Below, one piece after another: positions 1 to 13,091 of a DNA stretch of 64,000 nt. The position numbers were made by a program, and so were the translations under genes. The notes under the pieces are model-generated. The model made no database searches and was not told the origin of the DNA. It saw nothing but the letters and a program-made list of their open reading frames with translations. Position 1 is the first letter of the stretch. Every line of letters begins with the position of its first letter. Where the stretch lies: NCBI RefSeq assembly GCF_029227855.1, contig NZ_CP074356.1, one strand, 5' to 3'. The DNA is from Escherichia coli (GTDB lineage Bacteria; Pseudomonadota; Gammaproteobacteria; Enterobacterales; Enterobacteriaceae).

Positions 1-102
1 GACACTGCGCTGGATCGTCTGATGCAGGGTGCACCGGCACCGCTGGCTGCAGGTAACCCGGCATCTGATGCCGTTAACGATTTGCTGAACACACCAGTGT
101 AA
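1..102 (+). CDS. C-terminal end of head scaffolding/protease gene (lambda C/Nu3-like); 5' end lies outside the window
   Basis: Open frame from window start to TAA at 100-102; lies immediately upstream of D as in the lambda head operon; only 33 codons visible. Confidence 0.55.
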   Translation, partial: DTALDRLMQGAPAPLAAGNPASDAVNDLLNTPV

Positions 103-111
103 GGGATGTTT

Positions 112-444
112 ATGACGAGCAAAGAAACCTTTACCCATTACCAGCCGCTGGGCAACAGTGACCCGGCTCATACCGCAACCGCGCCAGGCGGATTGAGTGC
201 GAAAGCGCCTGCAATGACCCCGCTGATGCTGGACACCTCCACCCGTAAGCTGGTTGCGTGGGATGGCACCACCGACGGTGCTGCTGTCGGCATTCTTGCT
301 GTTGCTGCTGACCAGACCAGCACCACGCTGACGTTCTACAAGTCCGGCACGTTCCGTTATGAGGATGTGCTCTGGCCGGAGGCTGCCAGCGACGAGACGA
401 AAAAACGGACCGCGTTTGCCGGAACGGCAATCAGCATCGTTTAA
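112..444 (+). CDS. D: head decoration protein D (lambda gpD)
   Basis: ORF 106-444; product from ATG 112 begins [11 protein letters not shown] and matches lambda gpD over its length (110 aa). Confidence 0.93.
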
Positions 445-499
445 CCTTACCCTTCATCACTAAAGGCCGCCTGTGCGGCTTTTTTTACGGGATTTTTTT

Positions 500-775
500 A
501 TGTCGATGTACACAACCGCCCAGCTGCTGGCGGCAAATGAGCAGAAATTTAAGTTTGATCCGCTGTTTCTGCGTCTCTTTTTCCGTGAGAGCTATCCCTT
601 CACCACGGAGAAAGTCTATCTCTCACAAATTCCGGGGCTGGTAAACATGGCGCTGTACGTTTCGCCGATTGTTTCCGGTGAGGTTATCCGCTCCCGTGGC
701 GGCTCCACCTCTGAATTTACGCCGGGATATGTCAAGCCGAAGCACTTAGCATGGCTTTCTGAGGCTTTCGTGTAG
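500..775 (+). pseudogene. E: major capsid protein E, 5' fragment (first ~82 codons), interrupted at 735-744 by an inserted element
   Basis: From ATG 500 the product MSMYTTAQLLAANEQKF...GYVKPKH is lambda gpE N-terminus; after the core at 735-744 the frame continues into unrelated sequence and stops at 775. Confidence 0.92.
735..744. repeat. attL core / target-site direct repeat (AGCCGAAGCA)
   Basis: Identical 10-mer recurs at 11864-11873; prophage E sequence resumes exactly after the right copy. Confidence 0.85.
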
Positions 776-872
776 CTGCTGGTTTTTACACTTAATCTTT
801 TGATAATAAAGAATAAGTTTATCTGGCGCTTTCACTGAATTTTCCTCGTTATCTGTGTGTTGCAATCATCTC

Positions 873-892
873 TGTATTGCAGCTTGTATTGC
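873..892 (+). promoter_or_regulatory. tandem TGTATTGC motifs (TGTATTGCAGCTTGTATTGC), putative integrase arm-type binding sites overlapping the int 5' region
   Basis: Near-identical 20-mer (TGTATTGCAGCATGTATTGC) recurs at 11769-11788 just inside the other att core. Confidence 0.5.
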
Positions 893-907
893 TTTTTGGG
901 GCTAAAA

Positions 908-2143
908 ATGGCTGGCGAGAACAAACTGAGCGACAAAGCGCTTAAAGGATATCTGGGGAAACCCAGAGAAAAGCAGATCACCATTGCTGATGGAAAGGGG
1001 CTTTCTATTCGTGTGAGTACTAAAGGGGCTGTGAGCTTTGTTTTCTTCTACAGGTTAGCAGGTGGCCGGGCTGCTCCGGTCTGGCTAACGTTGGGTAAAT
1101 ATCCTGATATGTCACTCAAACAGGCAAGGGAAAAGCGCGACGAGTGCCGTGGTTGGTTGGCTGACAAACGTGATCCGCGTATCCAGATTAAGATTCAGGC
1201 TGAAGAACGCTTAAAGCCGGTCACAGTGGAGGATGCACTAAATTACTGGTATGAAAATTACTGTAAGGTGCGTCGTAAAACTCATGCTGTAACGCTTGGC
1301 AGATTTCGAAAGCATATCTTTCCCTATATCGGTCATTTGCCCGTAAATGACACTCACCTATATGAATAGCTGGACTGTTTTGACCGAATTAAACGTAATG
1401 CACCAGTTATGGCGGCGTATGTTTTTTCTGACACTAAATTAGCTCTTCGTTTTTGTCGGGTACGCCAGTACGCGACGTGTGATGCTTTAAAGGATTTGCG
1501 CATGAGTGATGTGGGGCAGATTGCAGGTAAGCGGGATCGGGTTCTGGATGAGGTCGAACTCGGCCAGCTCTGGAAGGCAATTTTTGTCGAGCCTGATTTA
1601 AAACTAATGTCTGAATACACGCGAAAAATGTTTGTGCTTTGTACAGTATTTGGATGTCGAATGAGTGAAGCCCGATTATCAGAATGGAGCGAATGGGATC
1701 TCGAAAGTTGGGTTTGGACTGTGCCAAAAGATCACTCAAAAACTGGTGTTGAAATCGTCAGACCAGTACCTGAAATTCTACGACAGTGGGTAACGGATGT
1801 TCACGAAGAGACAAAACATACTGGTTATGTGCTGGGAAGTCTGCGAATTAGAGAAAGCGTAAGCAAGATTGGGGGGAAAATCGGTAAACGTTTGGGCCAT
1901 GAAAAACAATGGTCACTACACGACCTTAGAAGAACGCTATCTACTCATCTAAGTGATCTCGGTGTTGAATTTTATGTAGTAGAACAACTGTTAGGCCATG
2001 CGCTACCTGGCGTGGCAGGTGTTTACAACCGGAGTAAGTTTATGGCTAAAAAACTGGATGCTCTGGAACTCTGGACTACATATCTCAATAGCATCGCAGC
2101 TGCTGATTCAAAAGTGACAATCCTCAAACAAAAGGCTGGTTAG
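908..2143 (+). pseudogene. int: P4-type tyrosine integrase interrupted by an in-frame amber codon (TAG at 1367-1369)
   Basis: ORFs 857-1369 and 1409-2143 are in the same frame, separated by one TAG; N-terminal arm-binding region (MAGENKLSDKALKGYLGK...) and C-terminal catalytic region with HDLRRT, LLGHA and VYNRS (Tyr) motifs. Confidence 0.85.
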
Positions 2144-2144
2144 C

Positions 2145-2375
2145 ATGAAAAAAATGGCAATTGTTGATAAAAAGGGTCTGGAGTACATTCCTAACATTGA
2201 CCGAATGATCCGTGAGAAAGAATGTCGGGAGCTAACTACTCTTGCGAACAGCACACGCTGGAAGCTGGAGAAGGAAGGAAAATTTCCTAAGCGGATCAAG
2301 ATTGGTTCCACTGCTGTTGCATATCGTCTTTCAGAAGTGCAGGCATGGATTCGAGGTGAGTGGGAAACAACTTAA
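2145..2375 (+). CDS. alpA: AlpA-family HTH transcriptional regulator / excisionase-like protein
   Basis: 76-aa product with AlpA-type HTH (RIKIGSTAVAYRLSEVQAWI); immediately downstream of int as in P4-like and PICI elements. Confidence 0.8.
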   Translation: MKKMAIVDKKGLEYIPNIDRMIREKECRELTTLANSTRWKLEKEGKFPKRIKIGSTAVAYRLSEVQAWIRGEWETT

Positions 2376-2382
2376 CTATTAG

Positions 2383-3213
2383 GTGGGCATTGTGGCTATA
2401 TTTCATTATACAGATCTTTTTGGTTTGAAAGGTATATTAGACTCTAATTCTTTATGGGCTACAAACATATATTTCTTAAATGATAAAGAGGAGTCTAACC
2501 ATGGATGTGAATGCTTTCGAAATACAATTAAAATAGTTGATGACAATATCATTCCAAAAGATAAGAAAACTATTTTGCTCAAGTCTCTTGACATGTATGA
2601 GAAAGGGAGGTTACAAAAAGAAAAAGGGATTGATAAACATGTTTATAGCATCTCTTTTTGTAAGGAAAACGATAAGTTAAGTCAGTGGAGAGGTTACGGA
2701 AATAAACAGGGTGTTTGCATTGAGTTTGATGCGGATGAACTTGTGAGCTTTTCTCAAAATATTTATTTAAATTGTGTTGCACATGATGTTATATATTCAA
2801 ATAATAACGATATTACTAAGATGAGTAAGGAGTTGGGAGAGTTTTTTTCTTGTAATGGTATTAATATTAAAGAAATGAATGATCATTTTGTAACAATGGT
2901 CTCTACGTATCAATTTATATCTAAATACATCCCATTTTTTAAACATCCTAGTTTTATCGAAGAGAATGAATTTAGATTGGTATTTACTCCGTGGATGCAA
3001 ATGCCAGATGTGCACTTCAGAATAAATAATAATGGGATCATCCCTTATATCATCATTGATAATAAAGATAATAGAAAGTTACCAATTAAAAGCATTACAA
3101 TTGGCCCGACAAACGATTATGATTTCATTGAGGCTGGTATAAAAATGTTCTTGGATTCAAGAGGATTTAGTTCTGTGGAAATTAAATCCTCATCAATTCC
3201 ATTCAGGGGGTAA
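2383..3213 (+). CDS. uncharacterised 276-aa protein, AT-rich accessory gene (candidate defence/abortive-infection cargo)
   Basis: Long ORF with GTG start at 2383 (alternative GTG at 2392 has AGGTGG 5 nt upstream); visibly AT-rich relative to int and primase; no confident family match by eye. Confidence 0.6.
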   Translation: MGIVAIFHYTDLFGLKGILDSNSLWATNIYFLNDKEESNHGCECFRNTIKIVDDNIIPKDKKTILLKSLDMYEKGRLQKEKGIDKHVYSISFCKENDKLSQWRGYGNKQGVCIEFDADELVSFSQNIYLNCVAHDVIYSNNNDITKMSKELGEFFSCNGINIKEMNDHFVTMVSTYQFISKYIPFFKHPSFIEENEFRLVFTPWMQMPDVHFRINNNGIIPYIIIDNKDNRKLPIKSITIGPTNDYDFIEAGIKMFLDSRGFSSVEIKSSSIPFRG

Positions 3214-3344
3214 GGATTAACACTTTTAATCTATGATATTATAAAAATGGTGGATAAAGGCGACCAGAATTGGTCGCCAATGTGAGTATATAGTTAGCCT
3301 TAATCAGAATACGAGGTTATCGCCTGATAGGCAATGTGAACAGT

Positions 3345-3701
3345 TCAATATTTAGGTGGTTCAACAAGAGCGTTTATCATTGCTCTCAAATTATCGCGAA
3401 CACTTATCCAAGTCTGTTCTGCTCGTTCTAACTCATCAGTGTACAACTTTAATGTTTTATCTATGCCATATGTGGCTATTAAATTTATAGCTTCTTGTAA
3501 TTTTTCAGGATTATTCCTTCTTGGGGGAGTGAATATACCACGGATTTTTCCGGTAATTAAAGCTTTACGGTGTCTACATAGAATACCTTTACTTCCTGCT
3601 GGACAATTACAAGTCATGATTAGCGAGCCAGAATCGTTTGATACAGTGACTATGTATACATCCAAACTACTGCTACTTGTTGCGAAGAATTCGTATTTCA
3701 T
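3345..3701 (-). CDS. SWIM-type zinc-finger protein (118 aa)
   Basis: CxC...CxH motif (CNCPAGSKGILCRH); AAGGAG Shine-Dalgarno about 8 nt upstream of the ATG; downstream of the Arc-like gene on the same strand. Confidence 0.6.
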   Translation of the reverse strand: MKYEFFATSSSSLDVYIVTVSNDSGSLIMTCNCPAGSKGILCRHRKALITGKIRGIFTPPRRNNPEKLQEAINLIATYGIDKTLKLYTDELERAEQTWISVRDNLRAMINALVEPPKY

Positions 3702-3728
3702 GTGTTAGCTCCTTGACTTCAATTATTC

Positions 3729-3920
3729 TTATCCTTTTGGTTCAATACCGCGCCGTAGCAGCTCTTTGCGCCCTAATTCTTTAAGCCAGTTGGCTAGGCT
3801 TATGCCGTCGCTCTGCGCTTCTTTGTCGAATTGCTCTTTTAGCTCTGGAGAAATTCGCATTCTGAATTGTGGAGATTGCCCATCACCCTTAGGACTTTTA
3901 TCGCGTTTGATCGTTGACAA
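3729..3920 (-). CDS. Arc/MetJ-type ribbon-helix-helix DNA-binding protein (candidate satellite repressor)
   Basis: C-terminal part ...PQFRMRISPELKEQFDKEAQSDGISLANWLKELGRKEL resembles Arc repressor; start uncertain (TTG at 3920 with AGGTGG upstream, or ATG further in; ORF track gives 3729-4043); divergent from the + strand operon that starts at 4060. Confidence 0.55.
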   Translation of the reverse strand: MSTIKRDKSPKGDGQSPQFRMRISPELKEQFDKEAQSDGISLANWLKELGRKELLRRGIEPKG

Positions 3921-4059
3921 GTGACCACCTATTGAATTAGCCTTTTCATTGTTAGGTGACCACCTTAACACGGGGGCACTTAAAAAAGCAAAGCCCGAAG
4001 GTGCTGGGAACACCAACGGGCTTCTAACCACCAACGATAGCAACAGTATCGAGGTAGCT

Positions 4060-4263
4060 ATGAGAAATCATACCACACACCCGCAAGGGCGGGACCCGCA
4101 CAACCTGAATAAATACATCTGGCGTTTTATCGCCTTGAGTACGGCACAACCGCGCATGATTACCATCGAGGCCATCAGCGAACAGGAAGCCCGCCAGCAA
4201 TCCCCAACTGGCTGCGTGATGGTATTCGCCGCCCGTATTCGTCAGGAGGTGTGCCGTGCTTAA
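4060..4263 (+). CDS. hypothetical small protein (first gene of operon leading to primase)
   Basis: ATG 4060 preceded by GAGG; in frame with ORF 3949-4263. Confidence 0.45.
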   Translation: MRNHTTHPQGRDPHNLNKYIWRFIALSTAQPRMITIEAISEQEARQQSPTGCVMVFAARIRQEVCRA

Positions 4264-4441
4264 AACCTTCCGTGTATTTGCCCGAGCTGTTAACCCACTG
4301 GGCCACACAATTGGTATCACTCAGAACGTGAAGGCTGTTAATGTTCAGACGGCTATTGCTGCGGTGAGAAGCGAATCATCAGAATATGGCTTATCACAAG
4401 TCATTATTTCAGCAGTGTATGAATTAAAAGAGGTGCATTAA
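4256..4441 (+). CDS. hypothetical small protein (61 aa)
   Basis: ORF whose start overlaps the upstream stop (translational coupling). Confidence 0.4.
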   Translation: MLKTFRVFARAVNPLGHTIGITQNVKAVNVQTAIAAVRSESSEYGLSQVIISAVYELKEVH

Positions 4442-4632
4442 TGCAGGAAATCACATTACACGAAGCCGCTGAACGTGCGCACCAGACAGAAATTATTTGC
4501 CGCCTTCTTGAGGTATACCCGAACAAAATTACAGATGCTGATATATCCGCGCTGGCGAGCCTACTGGCGCGCCTTTCGGGAAGTGTCGCTAGTTTCCTGA
4601 TTGAGGAAGAAAGTAAGCTGGTGGGGGATTAA
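4441..4632 (+). CDS. hypothetical small protein (63 aa)
   Basis: ATG overlaps upstream stop (TAATG); co-directional operon. Confidence 0.45.
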   Translation: MQEITLHEAAERAHQTEIICRLLEVYPNKITDADISALASLLARLSGSVASFLIEEESKLVGD

Positions 4633-4854
4633 ATGAATACAGAACGGGAAGTCTTTTTTAAATTGTTAGCATGTGCAGAAAGTTCATTAACTTTAAATAA
4701 TTCAGCAAAAGCAATATTAAATATGTGGCTTGATTGCATAAATGACAATGAAGATGCAAATATTGCTTATGGCCTGTTGTCACTTATTGATGAATCAGCA
4801 GAAAAACTCAATGACGCAATAAATAGTGCCCTGCTATCAAATAAGTCGAGTTAA
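4633..4854 (+). CDS. hypothetical small protein (73 aa), AT-rich
   Basis: ORF directly abutting the upstream stop. Confidence 0.4.
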   Translation: MNTEREVFFKLLACAESSLTLNNSAKAILNMWLDCINDNEDANIAYGLLSLIDESAEKLNDAINSALLSNKSS

Positions 4855-4871
4855 GTCGAGGAATAAATAAT

Positions 4872-5171
4872 ATGGAAATGAAAAATTCTGGCTTTATTGC
4901 CAGCGGCCCCGCTCGGCCTGAATTTATGAACGGCGATATTTACCGCGATAAATACGGCGGCACGGTAACGATTAAAGGCGTGGCAGAACGGCGCATCACT
5001 TACCGCCGTGAGGGGTATAGCTATGACTGCGTGATGCCTGTTTATCAGTTCCGGCGTGATTTTTCCCTGGTATATGCCGCACCCCGCAGTAAGCCCATCA
5101 GCAGGGAAAAAGCGCGGGGAAACATCCAGAAAATGAAAAGCATGATTAACGCATTCAGGGGCAAAAAATGA
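4872..5171 (+). CDS. hypothetical protein (99 aa)
   Basis: ORF whose stop overlaps the primase start. Confidence 0.45.
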   Translation: MEMKNSGFIASGPARPEFMNGDIYRDKYGGTVTIKGVAERRITYRREGYSYDCVMPVYQFRRDFSLVYAAPRSKPISREKARGNIQKMKSMINAFRGKK

Positions 5172-6919
5172 AACTGGCACCGAACTTAAAAAAACAGCCA
5201 CGCGACAGACTGACAGAGGTAATCATCTTTGCAGGTAGTGATGCGTGGAGCCATGCGAAAGAGTGGCGGGAATGGGCGGGTAAACATATTGCCGCCGACG
5301 ATGTGCCGCCTGTCGTGCTGGCTGATGAGCAACTGAAAAATATCACCGATTACCGGATCATTGATGAAGATCGTCAGTGTGTGCGTGTTTACCGCGCAGG
5401 ACATATCACAGAGCACAGCATGACGCAGATTGTTACGTTACTGGCTGTGGCTGGAGTGAAGACCGTACACGAATACGCGGGGATTACTGACACCAGCCCA
5501 GTGGATTTATCCGAGCAGTTGCCGCGACTCAAAGAGGAATGCGAGCGTGGGGAAAGTCTGGTGCTTAATCTTCCGACGAAGCAAAAGGCGCAACTTTCAC
5601 AGATGGCAGACAGTGAACGTGCACAACTACTTGCCGATCGCTTTGATGGTGTGTGTGTTCATGCAGAAAGTGAAATCGTCCACGTATGGCGCGGCGGGGT
5701 ATGGTGTCCGGTCAGCACAATGGAGCTGAGCCGCGAAATGGTGGCGATCTATTCAGAGCACAGGGCCACGTTCAGCAAACGTGTAATCAATAACGCCGTG
5801 GAAGCGTTAAAAGTTATTGCCGACCCCATGGGGGAGCCGTCCGGTGATTTGCTACCGTTCACTAATGGTGTGCTTAACCTGAAAACGGGGGAATTTTCTC
5901 CGCACTCGCCGGAGCACTGGAGCACCACGCACAATGGCATTGAGTACACGCCACCAGTAGCAGGGGAAAACATCCGCGATAATGCGCCAAATTTCCATAA
6001 ATGGCTTGAACATGCTGCAAGAAAAGACCCGCGCAAGATGATGCGTATATGTGCCGCGTTATACATGATTATGGCGAACCGCTACGACTGGCAGATGTTC
6101 ATTGAGGCCACCGGAGACGGGGGAAGCGGTAAGAGTACATTTACCCATATTGCCACCCTGCTTGCTGGCAAACAGAACACCGTAAGCGCGGAGATGACAT
6201 CACTCGATGATGCAGGAGGGCGCGCGCAGGTTGTCGGGAGTCGTCTTATCGTCCTTGCCGATCAGCCGAAATATACGGGGGAAGGCACGGGCATCAAGAA
6301 AATCACGGGAGGCGATCCCGTTGAAATTAACCCGAAATATGAGAAGCGATTCACGACGATAATAAGGGCGGTGGTACTGGCAACCAATAACGACCCGATG
6401 ATCTTTACCGAACGGGCCGGAGGTGTGTCACGCCGTCGGGTGATTTTCCGGTTCGACAACATTGTAAGGGAGGACGAAAAAGACAAGGAATTACCGGAAA
6501 AGATAGCGGCAGAAATCCCCGTAATTATCCGCCGCTTGCTGGCTAATTTTGCTGACCCTGAAAAGGCACGGGCTTTATTACTGGAACAGCGTGACGGTGA
6601 TGAAGCTCTGGCAATAAAGCAGCAAACGGATCCGGTTGTTGAGCTTTGCGCGGCGCTGGAGTTTCTGGAGGAAGCTCGTGGGCTAATGATGGGCGGTGGT
6701 GGTGACACCGTGAAGTACACGACCAGAAACAGCCTTTACCGTGTCTATATGGCCTTCATGGCATACACAGGAAAGGGGAAATGTTTGAGCGTGAATGAGT
6801 TCGGAAAGGCTATGAGGTCAGCGGCGAAAGTTTACGGATATGAATATATTACGCGAAAAGTTAAGGGAGTCACGCAGACCAACGCAACGACTACTGATGA
6901 TTGCGATGCGTTTTTATAA
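5168..6919 (+). CDS. P4-alpha-type replication primase/helicase (phage/plasmid primase, P4 family C-terminal domain)
   Basis: 583-aa product with Walker A GDGGSGKST and surrounding blocks typical of P4-family primase C-terminal domains; followed by iterons. Confidence 0.85.
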   Translation: MKLAPNLKKQPRDRLTEVIIFAGSDAWSHAKEWREWAGKHIAADDVPPVVLADEQLKNITDYRIIDEDRQCVRVYRAGHITEHSMTQIVTLLAVAGVKTVHEYAGITDTSPVDLSEQLPRLKEECERGESLVLNLPTKQKAQLSQMADSERAQLLADRFDGVCVHAESEIVHVWRGGVWCPVSTMELSREMVAIYSEHRATFSKRVINNAVEALKVIADPMGEPSGDLLPFTNGVLNLKTGEFSPHSPEHWSTTHNGIEYTPPVAGENIRDNAPNFHKWLEHAARKDPRKMMRICAALYMIMANRYDWQMFIEATGDGGSGKSTFTHIATLLAGKQNTVSAEMTSLDDAGGRAQVVGSRLIVLADQPKYTGEGTGIKKITGGDPVEINPKYEKRFTTIIRAVVLATNNDPMIFTERAGGVSRRRVIFRFDNIVREDEKDKELPEKIAAEIPVIIRRLLANFADPEKARALLLEQRDGDEALAIKQQTDPVVELCAALEFLEEARGLMMGGGGDTVKYTTRNSLYRVYMAFMAYTGKGKCLSVNEFGKAMRSAAKVYGYEYITRKVKGVTQTNATTTDDCDAFL

Positions 6920-6933
6920 AAAATGGCAATGGT

Positions 6934-7161
6934 TATCTACCTTGTCTACCTGACTGAAAGAAAATACTTTTATTTCAATGTATTAATGCAGGTAGATAAC
7001 TATTTTTCACTGTCTACCTGTTATCTACCTTATCTACCCATTTTTGTAGACAGGTAAGGAGACGGGTAGAGATGAGGTAGACAGCTATTTGGGGCTGTCT
7101 ACCTCCCTGAAACCCGCGCCATTACTGGCCTGATAACTAATCAGGTAGACAAGGTAGACAA
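6934..7161. repeat. replication-origin iterons (about 12 copies of T[GT]TCTACC / GGTAGA[CT]A in both orientations)
   Basis: Dense cluster of the 8-9-bp motif in the non-coding stretch immediately downstream of the primase gene. Confidence 0.75.
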
Positions 7162-7208
7162 GGTGGTGGTGCACAAAAAACTTTTTAAACGAGGGGGTAA
7201 AAATAAAA

Positions 7209-7466
7209 ATGCACACTTCAGGAAAACTGAACAAACATATAAAGCCACATTACCGCGCCCTTGATATGGCTGAACACTGGCTAAGGGTGGCGATTAAGGC
7301 AATAGACCGCAACGCCGGGGAAGGATACGCGAAAGCACATCCCGAACTGATAAGCGCATTCATGACAACGGCGGCTGCAAACTTTGCCACGCTGACCGAA
7401 CGGGAGATTGCTGAAGCGGAGGAAGTGACAACAATCAATATTAAGTCCGGAGAGCAGGCAGCATGA
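7209..7466 (+). CDS. hypothetical protein (85 aa)
   Basis: ORF whose stop overlaps the ssb start (ATGA). Confidence 0.45.
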   Translation: MHTSGKLNKHIKPHYRALDMAEHWLRVAIKAIDRNAGEGYAKAHPELISAFMTTAAANFATLTEREIAEAEEVTTINIKSGEQAA

Positions 7467-7912
7467 CGGCGCAAATATCAGTTTACGGGCGGTTGGTGGA
7501 CGACCCGCAGACAAAACAGACCAGCAAGGGCACCCCCATGACGCTGGCGCGTATGGCGGTATCACTGCCCTGCAGTCAGTCGGATGACGGTCTGGCGACG
7601 TTGTGGTTATCTGTCCTGGCGTTTGGCAGACAAGCCGACGCGCTGGCAAAGCATCACAAAGGCGAACTCCTGAGCGTGGCGGGTAACATGCAGATGAGCC
7701 AGTGGACTGGACAGAACGGCGAAACGCGGCAGGGCTGGCAGGTTATCGCAGACAGCGTAATCAGTGCGCGATCGGTGCGACCGGGCGGCAAAAAAGGCCA
7801 ACAGGGGCAGGCTACTGACGCACTGAACAGAGCAAAACAACAGGCAGATCAGCAAGGAAGCCAGCCACCAGAGGGAGATAATGAGCAATGGGGAGATGAT
7901 ATCCCGTTTTAA
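7463..7912 (+). CDS. ssb: single-stranded DNA-binding protein (SSB)
   Basis: 149-aa product with OB-fold-like N-terminal region and acidic C-terminal tail ending DDIPF. Confidence 0.75.
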   Translation: MTAQISVYGRLVDDPQTKQTSKGTPMTLARMAVSLPCSQSDDGLATLWLSVLAFGRQADALAKHHKGELLSVAGNMQMSQWTGQNGETRQGWQVIADSVISARSVRPGGKKGQQGQATDALNRAKQQADQQGSQPPEGDNEQWGDDIPF

Positions 7913-8128
7913 ATATTGCCAATAAAAAAAGCCGGAAAAAATAAATTTTCCGGCATGCTACATAAATCCCGACCAAAGGGAGTGAAGATATTAACACTAA
8001 TTGTCCGCACTGAAGTTGTCACACCAAAACTTTATACAACATTGCACTCGGTTGCATGTGTTCGCATGACAAATATCGGTGATAGCATATATCCACAATT
8101 ATTTTTAATGAATGCAAAGAGGATGCGT

Positions 8129-9169
8129 ATGGTTGATTTATATTCGCCTACTCAGCTTGTACAGGTAGTTAATGCTGTAGATGTACAAAAACAACTAAAT
8201 GCGTTGTTTACCAGTTTGTTTTTTACTCGCTCGGTAATGTTTGAATCGCGCGATATTATTCTTGATACAATCGACGATCCAAATATCCCAATTGCAGCGT
8301 TTTGTTCTCCTATGGTGGGTAGTAAAGTTTCACGTGACGAAGGGTACGAATCAAAAACAATTCGTCCAGGCTATATGAAGCCGAAAAGCAGCATTGATCC
8401 AAATAAGTTAGCTGTGCGCCCTGCTGGTGTGTCACCTGAGCAATACAATGCTTTTGGGGCGCGTAATATTAAAGTTAAACAGGCGATTGTAAATCAGGCT
8501 AAAGCTATTCGTGCACGTATTGAATGGCTTGCTGTTCAGGCAATCACAACGGGGAAAAATATCATTGAGGGCGATGGTATTGAACGTTATGAGCTGGACT
8601 GGAATATAAAACCACAAAATATCATCACTCAGTCTGGCGGTACTGAGTGGTCAGGTAAGGATAAAGAAACTTTTGATCCAAATGATGATATTGAGAGCTA
8701 CGCAGAATTTAGTGAGGGCGTCACTAATATCATCATTATGGGTGGTAATGTATGGAAGAAATACCGTTCATTCAGAGCGATAAAAGAGGCTTTGGATACC
8801 CGTCGTGGTTCTAATTCCGAACTGGAAACGGCCCTTAAAGACCTTGGTGATTCGGTGAGTTTTAAAGGGTATATGGGCGATGTTGCGATTGTTGTTTACA
8901 GCGGGCGTTATACCGACGAGGACGGAACAGAAAAACATTTCCTTGATCCTGATTTGATGGTGCTTGGCAATACGGCTCTTCAGGGGATTGTCGCCTATGG
9001 CGGTATTCAGGATCCGGAGCTAATCCGAATGGGGCTGACTAAAGCCGAACTTGCACCGAAAAACTATATTGTGCCTGGTGATCCGGCTATTGAATATGTG
9101 CAGACACATTCAGCACCACAGCCAATACCGGCCCGCATCAATCGTTTTGTTACCGTTCGCATTGGCTAA
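8129..9169 (+). CDS. major capsid protein paralogue (lambda gpE-like) encoded by the satellite
   Basis: ORF 7916-9169; from ATG 8129 (GAGG upstream) the product aligns collinearly with the prophage's own E, sharing blocks ITQSGGTEWS, DTRRGS.SELETA.KDLG and GDVAIVVYSG. Confidence 0.85.
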   Translation: MVDLYSPTQLVQVVNAVDVQKQLNALFTSLFFTRSVMFESRDIILDTIDDPNIPIAAFCSPMVGSKVSRDEGYESKTIRPGYMKPKSSIDPNKLAVRPAGVSPEQYNAFGARNIKVKQAIVNQAKAIRARIEWLAVQAITTGKNIIEGDGIERYELDWNIKPQNIITQSGGTEWSGKDKETFDPNDDIESYAEFSEGVTNIIIMGGNVWKKYRSFRAIKEALDTRRGSNSELETALKDLGDSVSFKGYMGDVAIVVYSGRYTDEDGTEKHFLDPDLMVLGNTALQGIVAYGGIQDPELIRMGLTKAELAPKNYIVPGDPAIEYVQTHSAPQPIPARINRFVTVRIG

Positions 9170-9178
9170 GGGGGAGCA

Positions 9179-9520
9179 ATGGCTACTCATTACACTGAAC
9201 TCATGGCTGGCACTGAAGCACTGGTGACTACGCTGGGGATATTTTCAGCTAATAAAGGGGTAATTCCTGCATTTACGCCACTGATGCAGGAAGATGCAAC
9301 AGGTGCACTGGTGGTATGGGATGGTTCGAGCGTAGGTAAAGCGGTTTATGTTTCCGCTGTACAAATCGACACCGCGAAAAAAACACAGGCTCAGGTCTAT
9401 AAGACAGGTGTCTTAAATGTTGATGCTCTGAACTGGCCTGAGTCTGTTAAAGAACTGTCAGTAAAGGTTGCAGCGTTTGTTGGCTCAGGTATTTCTGTTC
9501 AGCCGCTGGCTCGTGTGTAA
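9179..9520 (+). CDS. head decoration protein paralogue (lambda gpD-like) encoded by the satellite
   Basis: 113-aa product alignable with prophage D at 112-444 (LVVWDGSSVGKAV versus [13 protein letters not shown]; shared C-terminal G.AISV region). Confidence 0.75.
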   Translation: MATHYTELMAGTEALVTTLGIFSANKGVIPAFTPLMQEDATGALVVWDGSSVGKAVYVSAVQIDTAKKTQAQVYKTGVLNVDALNWPESVKELSVKVAAFVGSGISVQPLARV

Positions 9521-9531
9521 AGGGGGATACA

Positions 9532-9915
9532 ATGCAGAATGATTACAATGACCTTAAGCCAATTGCCGAAATGATGTACCCGAATCAAGCTGTAGAGGAA
9601 TTAAAAGCTATCGCTGACAAAATGTGTTTAAGCGAGCGCCTTGTTGATATGAATCAGGTGATGGAAATTACAACCCTGAGTCGTCGTACACTGCTAAACC
9701 TTGAGGCTAGTGGAGAGTTCCCGGAGCGTGTGCAGGTTACGGAAGGGCGTAAGGCCTGGTATTTAAGTGAAGTGATCGACTGGATAAATAATATTCCTCG
9801 CGCTTCTGAATATTGCCGCGTACCTGTCCCAAAAAAGCCAGATGCGGCGCTATGCCTCAAGATTGAGCGTGTACGCCGCAATGCACGGGATGGTCGCTAT
9901 AAGCTGATTGGTTGA
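9532..9915 (+). CDS. AlpA-family HTH protein adjacent to cos (candidate packaging-redirection or regulatory protein)
   Basis: 127-aa product with AlpA-type HTH (ITTLSRRTLLNLEASGEFPERVQV) and a basic C-terminal extension; immediately upstream of the cos site. Confidence 0.55.
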   Translation: MQNDYNDLKPIAEMMYPNQAVEELKAIADKMCLSERLVDMNQVMEITTLSRRTLLNLEASGEFPERVQVTEGRKAWYLSEVIDWINNIPRASEYCRVPVPKKPDAALCLKIERVRRNARDGRYKLIG

Positions 9916-9923
9916 TGAAATTA

Positions 9924-9950
9924 GGACCCGCTCTGGCTGGCGGGTCCTTT
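9924..9950 (+). terminator. hairpin terminator-like element after gene 9532-9915
   Basis: GGACCCG...CGGGTCC stem followed by TTT. Confidence 0.4.
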
Positions 9951-10145
9951 CCGGCGATCCAGAACGTTACGGGGCGTCAGGCGCGCAGTTTTTCGCTATT
10001 TGTGAAAATTTTCCTGTTTAAGGCGTTTCCGTTCTTCTTCGCCGTAACTTAATGTTTTTATTAAAAACACCCCCTAAAAAGAAAGGAAACGACAGGTGCT
10101 AAAAACAGGCTTTTTGGCCTCTGTCGTTTCCTTTCTCTGGTTTTG
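9940..10145. other. lambda-type cos site (cosN-equivalent at about 9972-9983; cosB R3-I1-R2-R1 to about 10140)
   Basis: Stretch TTTTCGCTATTTGTGAAAATTTTCCTGTTTAAGGCGTTTCCGTTCTTCTTCG...AAAGAAAGGAAACGACAGGTGCT...GGCTTTTTGGCCTCTGTCGTTTCCTTTCTCTG closely matches the left end of phage lambda (cosB) from memory; cosN 12-mer reads GGGCGTCAGGCG instead of GGGCGGCGACCT; no Nu1 gene follows. Confidence 0.8.
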
Positions 10146-10513
10146 TTGCCATCCGTCGCGGTCTATCACCAGAAAAAATCTTATCCCTGAGTTGAATCAG
10201 GCCCTATTCAGAAGCGGCCAATAACGCGCCGCTAGCTTCACTTCATAGTTATGGCCTACTTCTGCGCCATTGCAATTGCTTTATGCGCCTTGATGGTGGA
10301 ATATAGAGCAAGCAGTTTGCGAATAACAAAGTTTCATATGTTTTTTGCTGTGTGGCTAGACAACTTTACAGCAGAGTTTTGTGTCAGTTCTTTATGTGTG
10401 CAAGCAAGCTTGAGGGGGAATTACTTCTGGCTGTATCTTTGCTTAAGAACAGCAATAATTTAATCATAAGGAAATGTATATAAGCCTGATTAAATTTCAG
10501 GCTTATTGAAATG

Positions 10514-11656
10514 TTAACTCCTTATTAGAGAGTAAATTCCATCCTCTTTAAGGAAGTCTATTACTTCAAAGAATGAGATAAAGAATTCCCAAGAACCAAA
10601 AGCATATGCATGAATTTCGTAAGGTGCAAAATGGAATCTAAATCCATCACTATTTATTGTGAACGAGTCTAAGTTACTATCCATGATACCCGTTGCAAAC
10701 GTACTAATGTCGTCCTCACTTGGTTTTTCACCAGTTTTCTCCCAAAATTCACGAGCTGATTCAGAGATTATTTTTTGTTTTATCTTATTAATCGCTTCTT
10801 GCTCTTTCCCTTCGGTAAATACATCCCATAAACTAAATTTGTATGCGTAGTCATCCTTGGTTATTACGAAATTACTAGTTTCAAAATGACTGTTAGGGTG
10901 TGCTGCTCCCGCACCATACCAATGTACGGAATGAAGGATGCTCATGACATTTTCGTTACAGTATGAGATGTTATAACTTTCATTATAGGAACTAGTGTAA
11001 GTGTGTTTATATTCTTCATCCCAATATGGTGTTCCTGGCCATAGTGATGTGCGTTCAGAAAAAATATGTAAAGCCGCTTTTCCTGAAAAGTAATCACTAA
11101 TGAGTTTTGCTGATTTCGGTAATGTATGGCTTTCAATTCTTGGATATGCTATTTCAATTTCATGCCCTGGGATCTTGTTATATTCTTCCTTGAAAACCTC
11201 GCTGCTAAAGTTAAATGGCCCATAAGTGATACCTTGAGATATTTCAAGTTTTTGTTGCGATGCTGCTAATCTTAAAGATCTAGATAAAATGTCCCAACCA
11301 TCATTTCTCTTAAAATCAATGAATTGGAGCTTGCTTGATATGTAGGCGGGTACTTCGCAATCATCAATAAGTAATGGTATCACGAACACATCATCTGGTT
11401 TGTAATACTTTAGTTTATCAATGGCGTCATTTATTTCGCGGCGAATATAACCATTTTTCTGAGTGCTCACTTTGCTAAGGATAAGGATTATCAAGTTTGA
11501 ATTAGCGAAGTTTTTTTGGATTTCATAATCCCAGTTTACGCCAGCGGGTATATCTTTTACATCCATCCAAGGGGAATATCCTCCACTTTTTAGCCTTTCA
11601 TAGATTTCTTCAGTTATCGTTTCATCTTCTTTTGCATGAGCAAGAAAAATTTTCAT
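10514..11656 (-). CDS. TIR-domain protein with C-terminal domain of unknown function (candidate anti-phage defence gene)
   Basis: 380-aa product; N-terminal about 135 aa looks like a TIR domain (MKIFLAHAKEDE...ILILSKVS...REINDAIDKL); C-terminal about 240 aa unassigned (contains HWYGAGAAHP motif); AT-rich; last gene before attR. Confidence 0.7.
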   Translation of the reverse strand: MKIFLAHAKEDETITEEIYERLKSGGYSPWMDVKDIPAGVNWDYEIQKNFANSNLIILILSKVSTQKNGYIRREINDAIDKLKYYKPDDVFVIPLLIDDCEVPAYISSKLQFIDFKRNDGWDILSRSLRLAASQQKLEISQGITYGPFNFSSEVFKEEYNKIPGHEIEIAYPRIESHTLPKSAKLISDYFSGKAALHIFSERTSLWPGTPYWDEEYKHTYTSSYNESYNISYCNENVMSILHSVHWYGAGAAHPNSHFETSNFVITKDDYAYKFSLWDVFTEGKEQEAINKIKQKIISESAREFWEKTGEKPSEDDISTFATGIMDSNLDSFTINSDGFRFHFAPYEIHAYAFGSWEFFISFFEVIDFLKEDGIYSLIRS

Positions 11657-11768
11657 TGAATATTCCTTTATAATTTAACTAATTAAGTGAAGGAGGCTTT
11701 ACTTGGCTGTGTTAGAAAAAATTCGGTTTGTTTTTTGTACGATGCCAAGAAGGCTTTTCCCTAACCAT

Positions 11769-11788
11769 GTATTGCAGCATGTATTGCT
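11769..11788 (+). promoter_or_regulatory. tandem TGTATTGC motifs (putative integrase arm-type sites, right arm)
   Basis: TGTATTGCAGCATGTATTGC, 19/20 identical to 873-892. Confidence 0.5.
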
Positions 11789-11863
11789 ACGTAATTCTGC
11801 ACCCTCTCATTTATAAAATAAATCTCTGTTAAATCAAGTATCTTTTTTCTATTTGACTCATGT

Positions 11864-11873
11864 AGCCGAAGCA
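11864..11873. repeat. attR core / target-site direct repeat (AGCCGAAGCA)
   Basis: Identical to 735-744; E sequence (HEVNPQMTL...) resumes from this point. Confidence 0.85.
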
Positions 11874-12699
11874 TGAGGTGAATCCGCAGATGACCCTGCG
11901 TCGCCTGCCGGATGAAGATCCGCAGAATCTGGCGGACCCGGCTTACCGCCGCCGTCGCATCATTATGCAGAACATGCGTGACGAAGAGCTGGCCATTGCC
12001 CAGGTCGAAGAGATGCAGGCAGTTTCTGCCGTGCTTAAGGGCAAATACACCATGACCGGTGAAGCCTTCGATCCGGTTGAGGTGGATATGGGCCGCAGTG
12101 AGGCGAATAACATCACGCAGTCCGGCGGCACGGAGTGGAGCAAGCGTGACAAGTCCACGTATGACCCGACCGACGATATCGAAGCCTACGCGCTGAACGC
12201 CAGCGGAGTGGTGAATATCATCGTGTTTGATCCGAAAGGCTGGGCGCTGTTCCGTTCCTTCAAAGCCGTCAAGGAGAAGCTGGATACTCGTCGCGGCTCT
12301 CATTCCGAGCTGGAGACAGCGGTGAAAGACCTGGGCAAAGCGGTGTCCTACAAGGGGATGTATGGCGATGTGGCCATCGTCGTGTATTCCGGACAGTACG
12401 TGGAAAACGGCGTCAAAAAGAACTTCCTGCCGGACAACACGATGGTGCTGGGGAACACTCAGGCACGCGGTCTGCGCACCTATGGCTGCATTCAGGATGC
12501 GGACGCACAGCGCGAAGGCATTAACTCCTCTGCCCGTTACCCGAAAAACTGGGTGACCACCGGCGATCCGGCGCGTGAGTTCACCATGATTCAGTCAGCA
12601 CCGCTGATGCTGCTGGCTGACCCTGATGAGTTCGTGTCCGTACAACTGGCGCAATCGTGGCCCTTCGGGGCCATTTTCTCTCTGTGGAGGAGTCCATGA
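11864..12699 (+). pseudogene. E: major capsid protein E, 3' fragment (about 260 codons), with the lambda stop position read as CAA
   Basis: Product ...EVNPQMTLRRLPDEDPQ...DEFVSVQLA is lambda gpE from about residue 83; 500-744 plus 11874-12654 equals 1026 nt, the lambda E length; frame runs on 15 codons to TGA at 12697-12699. Confidence 0.9.
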
Positions 12700-13091
12700 C
12701 GAAAGATGAACTGATTGTCCGTCTCCGGTCGCTGGGTGAGCAACTGAACCGTGATGTCAGCCTGACGGGGACGAAAGAAGAACTGGCGCTCCGTGTGGCA
12801 GAGCTGGAAGAGGAGCTTGATGACACGGATGACGCTGCCGGTCAGGATACCCCTCTCAGACCGGAAAATGCGCTGACCGGACATGAAAATGAGGTGGTAT
12901 CAGAGCAGCCGGATACCATGATTGATACGGCTGCTCTGGTCACGGTCGTGGCACTGGTGACGCTGCATACTGATGCACTTCACGCCACGCGGGATGAACC
13001 TGTGGCATTTGTGCTGCCGGGAACGGCGTTTCGTGTCTCTGTCGGTGTGGCAGCCGAAATGACAGAACGTGGCCTGGCCAGAATGCAATAA
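12696..13091 (+). CDS. FI: DNA-packaging/head assembly protein FI
   Basis: Product MTKDELIVRLRSLGEQLNRD... matches lambda gpFI. Confidence 0.9.
   Translation: MTKDELIVRLRSLGEQLNRDVSLTGTKEELALRVAELEEELDDTDDAAGQDTPLRPENALTGHENEVVSEQPDTMIDTAALVTVVALVTLHTDALHATRDEPVAFVLPGTAFRVSVGVAAEMTERGLARMQ

Follow-up and report, generated by a model that had tools for sequence, protein, structure and literature searches.

A DUF2971-family gene in the alpA-proximal cargo slot of an E. coli helper-embedded PICI is a candidate single-gene abortive-infection effector

What is the function of an AT-rich gene that lies immediately behind the integrase and alpA genes of a phage satellite in E. coli? The question arises from a 64,000-nt stretch of contig NZ_CP074356.1 (hereafter the window, whose numbering is used throughout), where an initial annotation had described a 276-aa gene at 2383-3213 and proposed it as a candidate single-gene defence or abortive-infection (Abi) effector. 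The open reading frame is real: it runs uninterrupted over these positions on the plus strand, with 276 aa counted from a GTG, and the chance of 273 stop-free codons at ~30% GC is roughly 1e-10 by arithmetic from composition (stops make up ~8% of random codons). The start, however, is better placed slightly downstream. The first GTG (2383) lacks a ribosome-binding site, whereas the second (2392) is preceded by AGGTGG at 2381-2386. Because this Shine-Dalgarno sequence, the N-termini (M-[SAG]-I-[FY]-H-Y-T) and lengths (mostly 273 aa) of the homologues and the RefSeq call (WP_016247984.1, also at 2392) agree, the true start is most likely the second GTG and the product a protein of 273 aa. Residue numbers below follow the 276-aa numbering. 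The features of the gene are as follows.

2392 to 3213, plus strand: DUF2971-family coding sequence, 273 aa (alternative upstream GTG at 2383, giving 276 aa), with a predicted DarT-like ADP-ribosyltransferase fold
2381 to 2386, plus strand: Shine-Dalgarno AGGTGG, 5 nt 5' of the GTG at 2392, read directly from the sequence
3259 to 3278, no strand assigned: hairpin with a perfect GC-rich stem of 8 bp, GGCGACCA-GAAT-TGGTCGCC, in the gap where the DUF2971 and SWIM genes converge

The surroundings of the gene are as first described. It follows int-alpA directly and in the same orientation, beginning 16 nt beyond the alpA stop codon (2373-2375); its GC content is 0.30-0.31, against 0.42-0.46 for int/alpA and 0.49-0.53 for the icd-primase region; and it converges with a pair of minus-strand genes, YlcI/YnfO and SWIM (3345-4043). 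The gene has its own Shine-Dalgarno sequence, and a consensus scan recognised no promoter-like site upstream of it. The hairpin at 3259-3278 folds at -23 kcal/mol (z=-3.5) and, judged by its sequence, is a probable terminator; it was not called by the consensus terminator scan. Both the promoter and the terminator consensus scans performed no better than on shuffled sequence.

The gene is carried by an island of ~11.1 kb (745-11873) that interrupts the lambda E-like major capsid gene of a lambdoid prophage. The gene order of the island is int, alpA, DUF2971, SWIM (minus strand), YlcI (minus strand), icd-like, small ORFs, DUF4222, primase and ssb, followed by the island's own lambda E-like capsid and D-like decoration genes (at about 8130-9520), an HTH gene and a 3' cargo gene. 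Its ends, and the two genes that bound the stretch of interest, are listed here.

735 to 744, plus strand: attL identity block AGCCGAAGCA, inside the prophage capsid gene E; a 10-mer shared with 11864-11873, with capsid fragments annotated on both sides
11864 to 11873, plus strand: attR identity block AGCCGAAGCA, the same 10-mer as attL
2145 to 2375, plus strand: alpA, left boundary of the variable slot, from ORF and annotation; kept in all sister elements
3729 to 4043, minus strand: ORF that bounds the variable slot on the right and contains the YlcI/YnfO (DUF3950)-like gene; its YlcI/HicB-like counterparts in loci L010 and L017 (63-64 aa) share 60% identity with it

The real YlcI/YnfO-like coding sequence is probably only the 3' ~190 nt of this last ORF.

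[quoted passage not shown] Since the backbone runs int-alpA...primase-ssb...capsid, the insertion is in capsid gene E and the att block measures 10 bp, the element is a helper-embedded PICI of the 11capE type. The initial annotation had spoken of P4-like and PICI satellites together; the capsid gene E insertion and the att block uphold the PICI part, and a P4-like identity was rejected. An Rfam scan of positions 1-13000 for C4/isrK immunity RNAs returned none at the gathering threshold.

The satellite integrase (908-2143) carries an in-frame nonsense codon at 1367-1369, W154* relative to strain 10. With it the satellite is probably unable to excise in this strain, in which case the helper capsid gene would stay permanently split. 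Just 3' of the primase gene, iteron-like direct repeats at 6932-7104 (two copies of GTTATCTACCTTGTCTACC and two of a 30-nt AGGTAGA...TCTACCT palindromic unit) are probably the satellite replication origin. Near both satellite ends (873-893 and 11768-11788) lies a 21-nt motif with an internal doublet, TGTATTGCAGC(T/A)TGTATTGCT, which may correspond to the 'doubled DNA motif' that has been reported to flank attP in HE-PICIs. The 3' variable slot (10514-11656, minus strand, GC 0.36) encodes a 380-aa protein with an N-terminal TIR domain, identical to that of strain MRSN346647 and with weak PADLOC TIR matches. This gene is the element's second candidate for a role in defence. In sister elements the 3' slot holds a gene for a 311-aa hypothetical protein or a very distant DUF2971 paralogue, and one locus (L029, NZ_AP022177.1) carries the same 5' DUF2971 gene as the window together with such a 3'-slot paralogue (924-1682, minus strand; 252 aa, 22% identity).

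To the eye the protein has no assignable family, as had been stated, but search tools do give one. It matches Pfam DUF2971 (PF11185) with E=3.2e-11 at residues 101-199, covering the full model (1-89), and all 57 aligned homologues match this family too. In PHROGs the match was to phrog_1762, a family without an assigned function (E=6e-26), and an NCBIfam search gave nothing meaningful. The PADLOC match to PDC-S31 was weak (E=1.3e-4, 19.9 bits, residues 70-146 only), and other DUF2971 homologues also match the PDC-S31 HMMs weakly (E 1e-4 to 1e-7, partial coverage). A DUF2971 profile search returned 33,551 clusters at 50% identity (E<=1e-3), with positions 5-273 covered, and Foldseek against AFDB50 returned more than 1744 clusters at E<=0.001. 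Among the best 50 AFDB50 matches listed, nearly all are DUF2971/PF11185, with TM 0.7-0.97 over about 270-300 columns; the full-length single-domain architecture is common to the protein and members of the DUF2971 family.

DUF2971 has been described as a predicted HYE-clade ADP-ribosyltransferase (ART) with an ExE motif III and large helical inserts, its nearest relatives being DarT, AbiGi and Tox-ART-HYD1 through a published profile-profile link (PMC12522546). In our own searches Pfam AbiGi scored below threshold in five members (best E=0.014), and Tox-ART-HYD1, likewise weakly matched by some members, gave a faint, sub-threshold match at residues 7-25 of the window protein. Searches of the PDB by phmmer and hmmsearch, using the protein and the 57- and 113-sequence profiles, gave chance matches only (GABA receptor, RPS10, TCTP), and a sequence-level bridge to DarT or any solved ART was therefore rejected.

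Remote homology and structure prediction, both suggested in the initial annotation, were informative: beside the DUF2971 match, an AlphaFold2 model from the 57-sequence alignment was confident (pLDDT 91.7, pTM 0.88), and Foldseek with this model placed the DarT proteins of Mtb and Thermus at the top ranks (prob 0.98-0.85, scores moderate). According to the model, the DUF2971 protein has an ART core fold and DarT enzymes are its closest solved relatives. Across the 57 homologues, which come from several phyla, ~17 residues are invariant (H8, T10, N33, D34, E37, W102, R103, Y105, K187, F191, E194, E196, R198, R213, G241 and P242), and most of these stay invariant or at least 90% conserved in 113 more diverse sequences. 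Two of the proposed ART motifs map to the following codons.

2413 to 2421, plus strand: codons of H8-Y9-T10, proposed ART motif I; H8 and T10 do not vary among the 57 sequences, in which Y9 is at least 90% conserved, and H is at least 90% conserved in the 113; site of the faint Tox-ART-HYD1 match
2962 to 2970, plus strand: codons of E194-N195-E196 (ExE), proposed ART motif III; E194 and E196 invariant in both the 57- and the 113-sequence alignments

In the predicted structure H8-x-T10 lies on the first strand (5-11), Y105 follows the helix 99-105 and E194-x-E196 opens the strand 196-203. These three elements are in line with the published description of motifs I, II and III of DUF2971 (PMC12522546) and, by that correspondence with a predicted fold, would form the catalytic residues.

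In a rival reading the protein has an ART-like fold but is no transferase. It could be an NAD+/nucleotide-binding sensor or a hydrolase, for example, or have a cellular role unrelated to phage, such as that of a secreted effector, which has been suggested for some DUF2971 proteins of Legionella. Biochemical activity has been demonstrated for no DUF2971 protein, ~18% of family members are predicted effectors (PMC12522546), and the family is so large that functions may vary. Nevertheless, active ARTs typically have the ExE and H-x-T motifs that are invariant here, secretion-related neighbours were found in none of the contexts examined, and the mobile, AT-rich hotspot context with its TIR and Abi alternatives (see below) points to conflict with phages. 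We regard such a non-transferase or phage-unrelated role as unlikely.

The validated member of the family with which the gene is best compared is Aristaios (pUCCL641_199, 316 aa), a single-gene Abi system of a lactococcal plasmid with a DUF2971 assignment and an ART-like predicted fold (PMC11381338), which blocks phage transcription and protein production and does not act at the level of DNA replication (PMC13064643, PMC12967558). Like Aristaios, the window gene encodes a DUF2971 protein with a predicted ART fold over most of its length, is a single gene without a partner and is carried on a mobile element. The two are also similar in size (316 against 273 aa). Aristaios stems from a Gram-positive plasmid whereas the window gene belongs to an E. 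coli phage satellite. Moreover, Aristaios has a measured phenotype against Skunavirus, whereas the window gene is likened to it at the family level only, with an identity that is probably low; two tblastn searches of the plasmid collection gave no Lactococcus match among the matches listed or the top-ten genera. DarT (PDB 7OMV, 7YK3, 8BAQ) is closest in fold but has no HMMER-level sequence similarity to the window protein. It works as the toxin of a toxin-antitoxin (TA) system with the DarG macrodomain antitoxin, whereas the window gene has no DarG, and relative to DarT the DUF2971 protein is extended at its C-terminus and carries large helical inserts at residues 34-77 and 144-185. PDC-S31 is a related-looking single-gene defence candidate, and itself only a candidate, of which the window clade is at best a distant relative.

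How the gene is distributed was analysed in the satellites that share its backbone. A search of 5426 complete E. coli genomes found the window integrase in 174, in most of them with an identity of 99% or higher. Only 35 of these 174 carry the DUF2971 gene; ~80% of integrase-bearing genomes are without it. We compared the stretch from alpA to YlcI/YnfO in 14 elements inserted at the same capsid-gene site with integrase DNA at least 98% identical. In place of DUF2971, three elements carried an AbiC/AbiP-like 'putative phage abortive infection protein', two a TIR protein matching PADLOC PDC-S35 (E=6e-67), five a 178-aa protein, and one each a 305-, 467-, 273- or 265-aa protein; some of these alternative cargos sit on the opposite strand. 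A more distant element with a different integrase (L028) has a BRO-N protein in the slot. Elements with integrase DNA at least 98% identical hold eight unrelated gene families between alpA and YlcI/YnfO. With the exception of BRO-N, the slot cargos have a GC content of 0.31-0.35 and none is related to DUF2971. The 273-aa slot protein of L026 was considered as a diverged DUF2971 and rejected, as the A1 HMM gave no match.

The slot between alpA and YlcI/YnfO is a variable cargo site. The DUF2971 gene is accordingly no ubiquitous core satellite gene, being present in 35 of 174 integrase-bearing genomes and replaced by other cargo in the 14 near-identical elements sampled. A survey of the same slot in relatives, another of the checks proposed at the outset, found TIR/PDC-S35, an Abi-like protein and five hypothetical proteins that are unrelated. 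Immune systems are known to have hotspots at the 5' and 3' ends of PICIs (PMC11364771), and defence hotspots are also known in P4 (PMC9122126). The present slot resembles both in being adjacent to int-alpA within a conserved backbone and in holding alternative AT-rich defence-like genes, and the TIR gene of the window lies in a second variable slot, at the 3' end. It differs from them in its backbone, that of an 11capE helper-embedded PICI, for which PMC10111431 calls the zone the 'Bro zone' and does not analyse defence cargo.

That designation brings in the main rival explanation, in which the gene is a life-cycle or helper-manipulation factor, transcribed upon satellite induction together with int-alpA or by read-through from the helper late operon; its ART product would modify host or helper components in favour of satellite replication and packaging and not for protection of the cell. 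The gene lies 16 nt behind alpA in the orientation of int-alpA and the helper late operon, with no promoter-like site to set beside its own Shine-Dalgarno sequence; helper late transcription has been proposed to read into HE-PICIs, and regulatory Bro/eta-like genes, translationally coupled to an alpA homologue, have been placed at this position (both PMC10111431). The BRO-N gene in the slot of L028 is in keeping with this. Yet a gene that ~80% of integrase-bearing genomes lack, and whose place is taken by unrelated genes (TIR and Abi-like ones among them, in some elements in reverse orientation), cannot be a requirement of the life cycle. DUF2971 relatives on conjugative plasmids adjoin Abi genes, and in other satellites a longer gap behind alpA leaves room for a promoter. 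A life-cycle role is for these reasons an unlikely account of the gene.

Outside E. coli, proteins 34-60% identical to the DUF2971 protein are encoded directly after int-alpA in satellites of several genera. The hosts are Buttiauxella, Enterobacter ludwigii, E. asburiae, E. kobei and K. pneumoniae, together with a K. pneumoniae phage-plasmid and a K. aerogenes circle, and most of the chromosomal satellites are again embedded among prophage head genes. All copies are AT-rich relative to their flanks (GC 0.32-0.37), and the gap between alpA and DUF2971 in these other satellites is 68-134 nt. Where the integrase is 91% identical to that of the window the DUF2971 protein is only 43-45% identical, whereas integrases of 52-54% identity accompany DUF2971 proteins of 59-60%. 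Since the identities of the two genes are discordant, the gene moves between satellite backbones.

The K. aerogenes 10.5-kb circular 'plasmid' (L009, NZ_CP142848.1) carries int, alpA, DUF2971 (59%), YlcI/YnfO, primase and a ClpP-capsid fusion, and looks like an excised, circularised satellite. On an IncI-gamma/K1 plasmid (NZ_CP068153.1; 6001-7565 of locus L012) a 39%-identical DUF2971 gene lies immediately upstream of an abortive infection family gene, and together they may be a plasmid defence module of two genes. This copy came from a tblastn search with matches in 411 E. coli plasmid records overall. In Enterobacter a second cargo gene lies beside the slot DUF2971 gene (L015, 5883-6398, minus strand; L017, 4207-4974, plus strand). 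These second genes are homologous to the slot proteins of 178 aa and 265 aa in E. coli, and cargos are thus combined as modules.

Is the gene maintained, or is it what remains of AT-rich DNA that was acquired horizontally and is now non-functional or silenced? Its GC content is very low (0.30), the satellite integrase in the window carries a nonsense mutation, and the gene is interrupted in 3 of the 35 genomes. The other 32 copies are full length. Between E. coli DUF2971 alleles dN/dS is 0.11-0.41, with a dS ~4x that of the adjacent integrase. The gene is under purifying selection and is not decaying. Together with the intact ORF and its good Shine-Dalgarno sequence, the invariant residues shared with distant homologues and the confident fold prediction, this makes a remnant extremely improbable. 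The initial annotation had counted a non-expressed ORF with frameshifts in relatives as evidence against its proposal; the comparison speaks against such decay.

The remaining question at the locus is whether the gene has a dedicated partner, for which the neighbouring minus-strand gene is the obvious candidate.

3345 to 3701, minus strand: SWIM zinc-finger gene, 118 aa, downstream of YlcI/YnfO and inside the variable stretch; Pfam SWIM E=3.8e-5

Were the DUF2971 protein the toxin of a TA or addiction module that stabilises the satellite, the SWIM protein or another neighbour would be its antitoxin. The closest fold, DarT, is indeed a TA toxin, and the SWIM gene, located within the variable stretch, accompanies DUF2971 in all E. 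coli copies examined and also in Buttiauxella (32% identity). However, SWIM occurs in 52 E. coli genomes against 35 for DUF2971, including beside three other unrelated cargos, and it is absent from the DUF2971-bearing elements of K. aerogenes, K. pneumoniae and Enterobacter. It is transcribed with YlcI/YnfO from the strand opposite to DUF2971. Neither a DarG-like macrodomain nor another ADP-ribose hydrolase was found near the gene, and no macrodomain is annotated in the homologue contexts examined. SWIM was therefore rejected as a dedicated partner or antitoxin, given its presence beside other cargos and its absence from most satellites with DUF2971, and a TA module is highly unlikely. The SWIM protein itself has a weak PADLOC match to PDC-S62 (E=4.9e-5).

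We consider, with a confidence a little above even, that the gene most likely encodes a single-gene abortive-infection effector with an ART fold that ADP-ribosylates nucleic acid or a component of gene expression. The original proposal of a single-gene defence or Abi effector is thereby backed by homology and context, namely the predicted ART family, Aristaios and the swappable slot. We base it on what the analysis shows, namely membership of the family, the predicted fold, conserved motifs, the variable content of the slot, horizontal exchange of the gene and purifying selection on it, and from these we infer the catalytic activity, target, trigger and anti-phage phenotype of the DUF2971 protein. 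In the proposed mechanism, phage infection would trigger the soluble single-domain DUF2971 protein, which would then transfer ADP-ribose from NAD+ to nucleic acid or to a component of gene expression; this modification would block phage gene expression and the infected cell would stop. A DNA or RNA target is a guess that we hold weakly, because the closest structural relatives all act on nucleic acids (DarT on ssDNA, Tpt1 on RNA) and Aristaios blocks transcription.

Given the 16-nt gap and the lack of a recognisable promoter, the gene may be expressed only upon AlpA-dependent or helper late transcription. Such expression would also fit the satellite life-cycle role discussed above. Alternatively, as the gene lies 16 nt behind alpA in a satellite embedded in the helper late operon, the protein could be a DarT-like nucleic-acid ART that needs no antitoxin, being gated transcriptionally, so that the induction circuit of the satellite would double as the infection sensor for an Abi toxin. 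We rate this more specific scheme as unlikely.

The assignment of DUF2971 as an ART, a validated DUF2971 defence gene, the satellite type and the hotspots at PICI ends are already published. As family assignment, satellite type and hotspot concept are all in the literature, the present analysis does not overturn current views. What it adds is modest: a DUF2971 clade of enterobacteria whose genes turn up repeatedly, as exchangeable cargo, in the slot next to alpA in helper-embedded PICIs, and the observation that this 'Bro zone' behaves like a defence hotspot. If active, the protein would extend the DUF2971/Aristaios ART defence family, which comprises more than 33,000 clusters at 50% identity, to enterobacteria for the first time, and the zone next to alpA, to which a regulatory role as 'Bro zone' had been ascribed, would be seen to serve helper-embedded PICIs as a defence hotspot. 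The tools of E. coli genetics would then ease the search for the substrate (DNA, RNA or protein) and for the antitoxin-free control of a DarT-like toxin.
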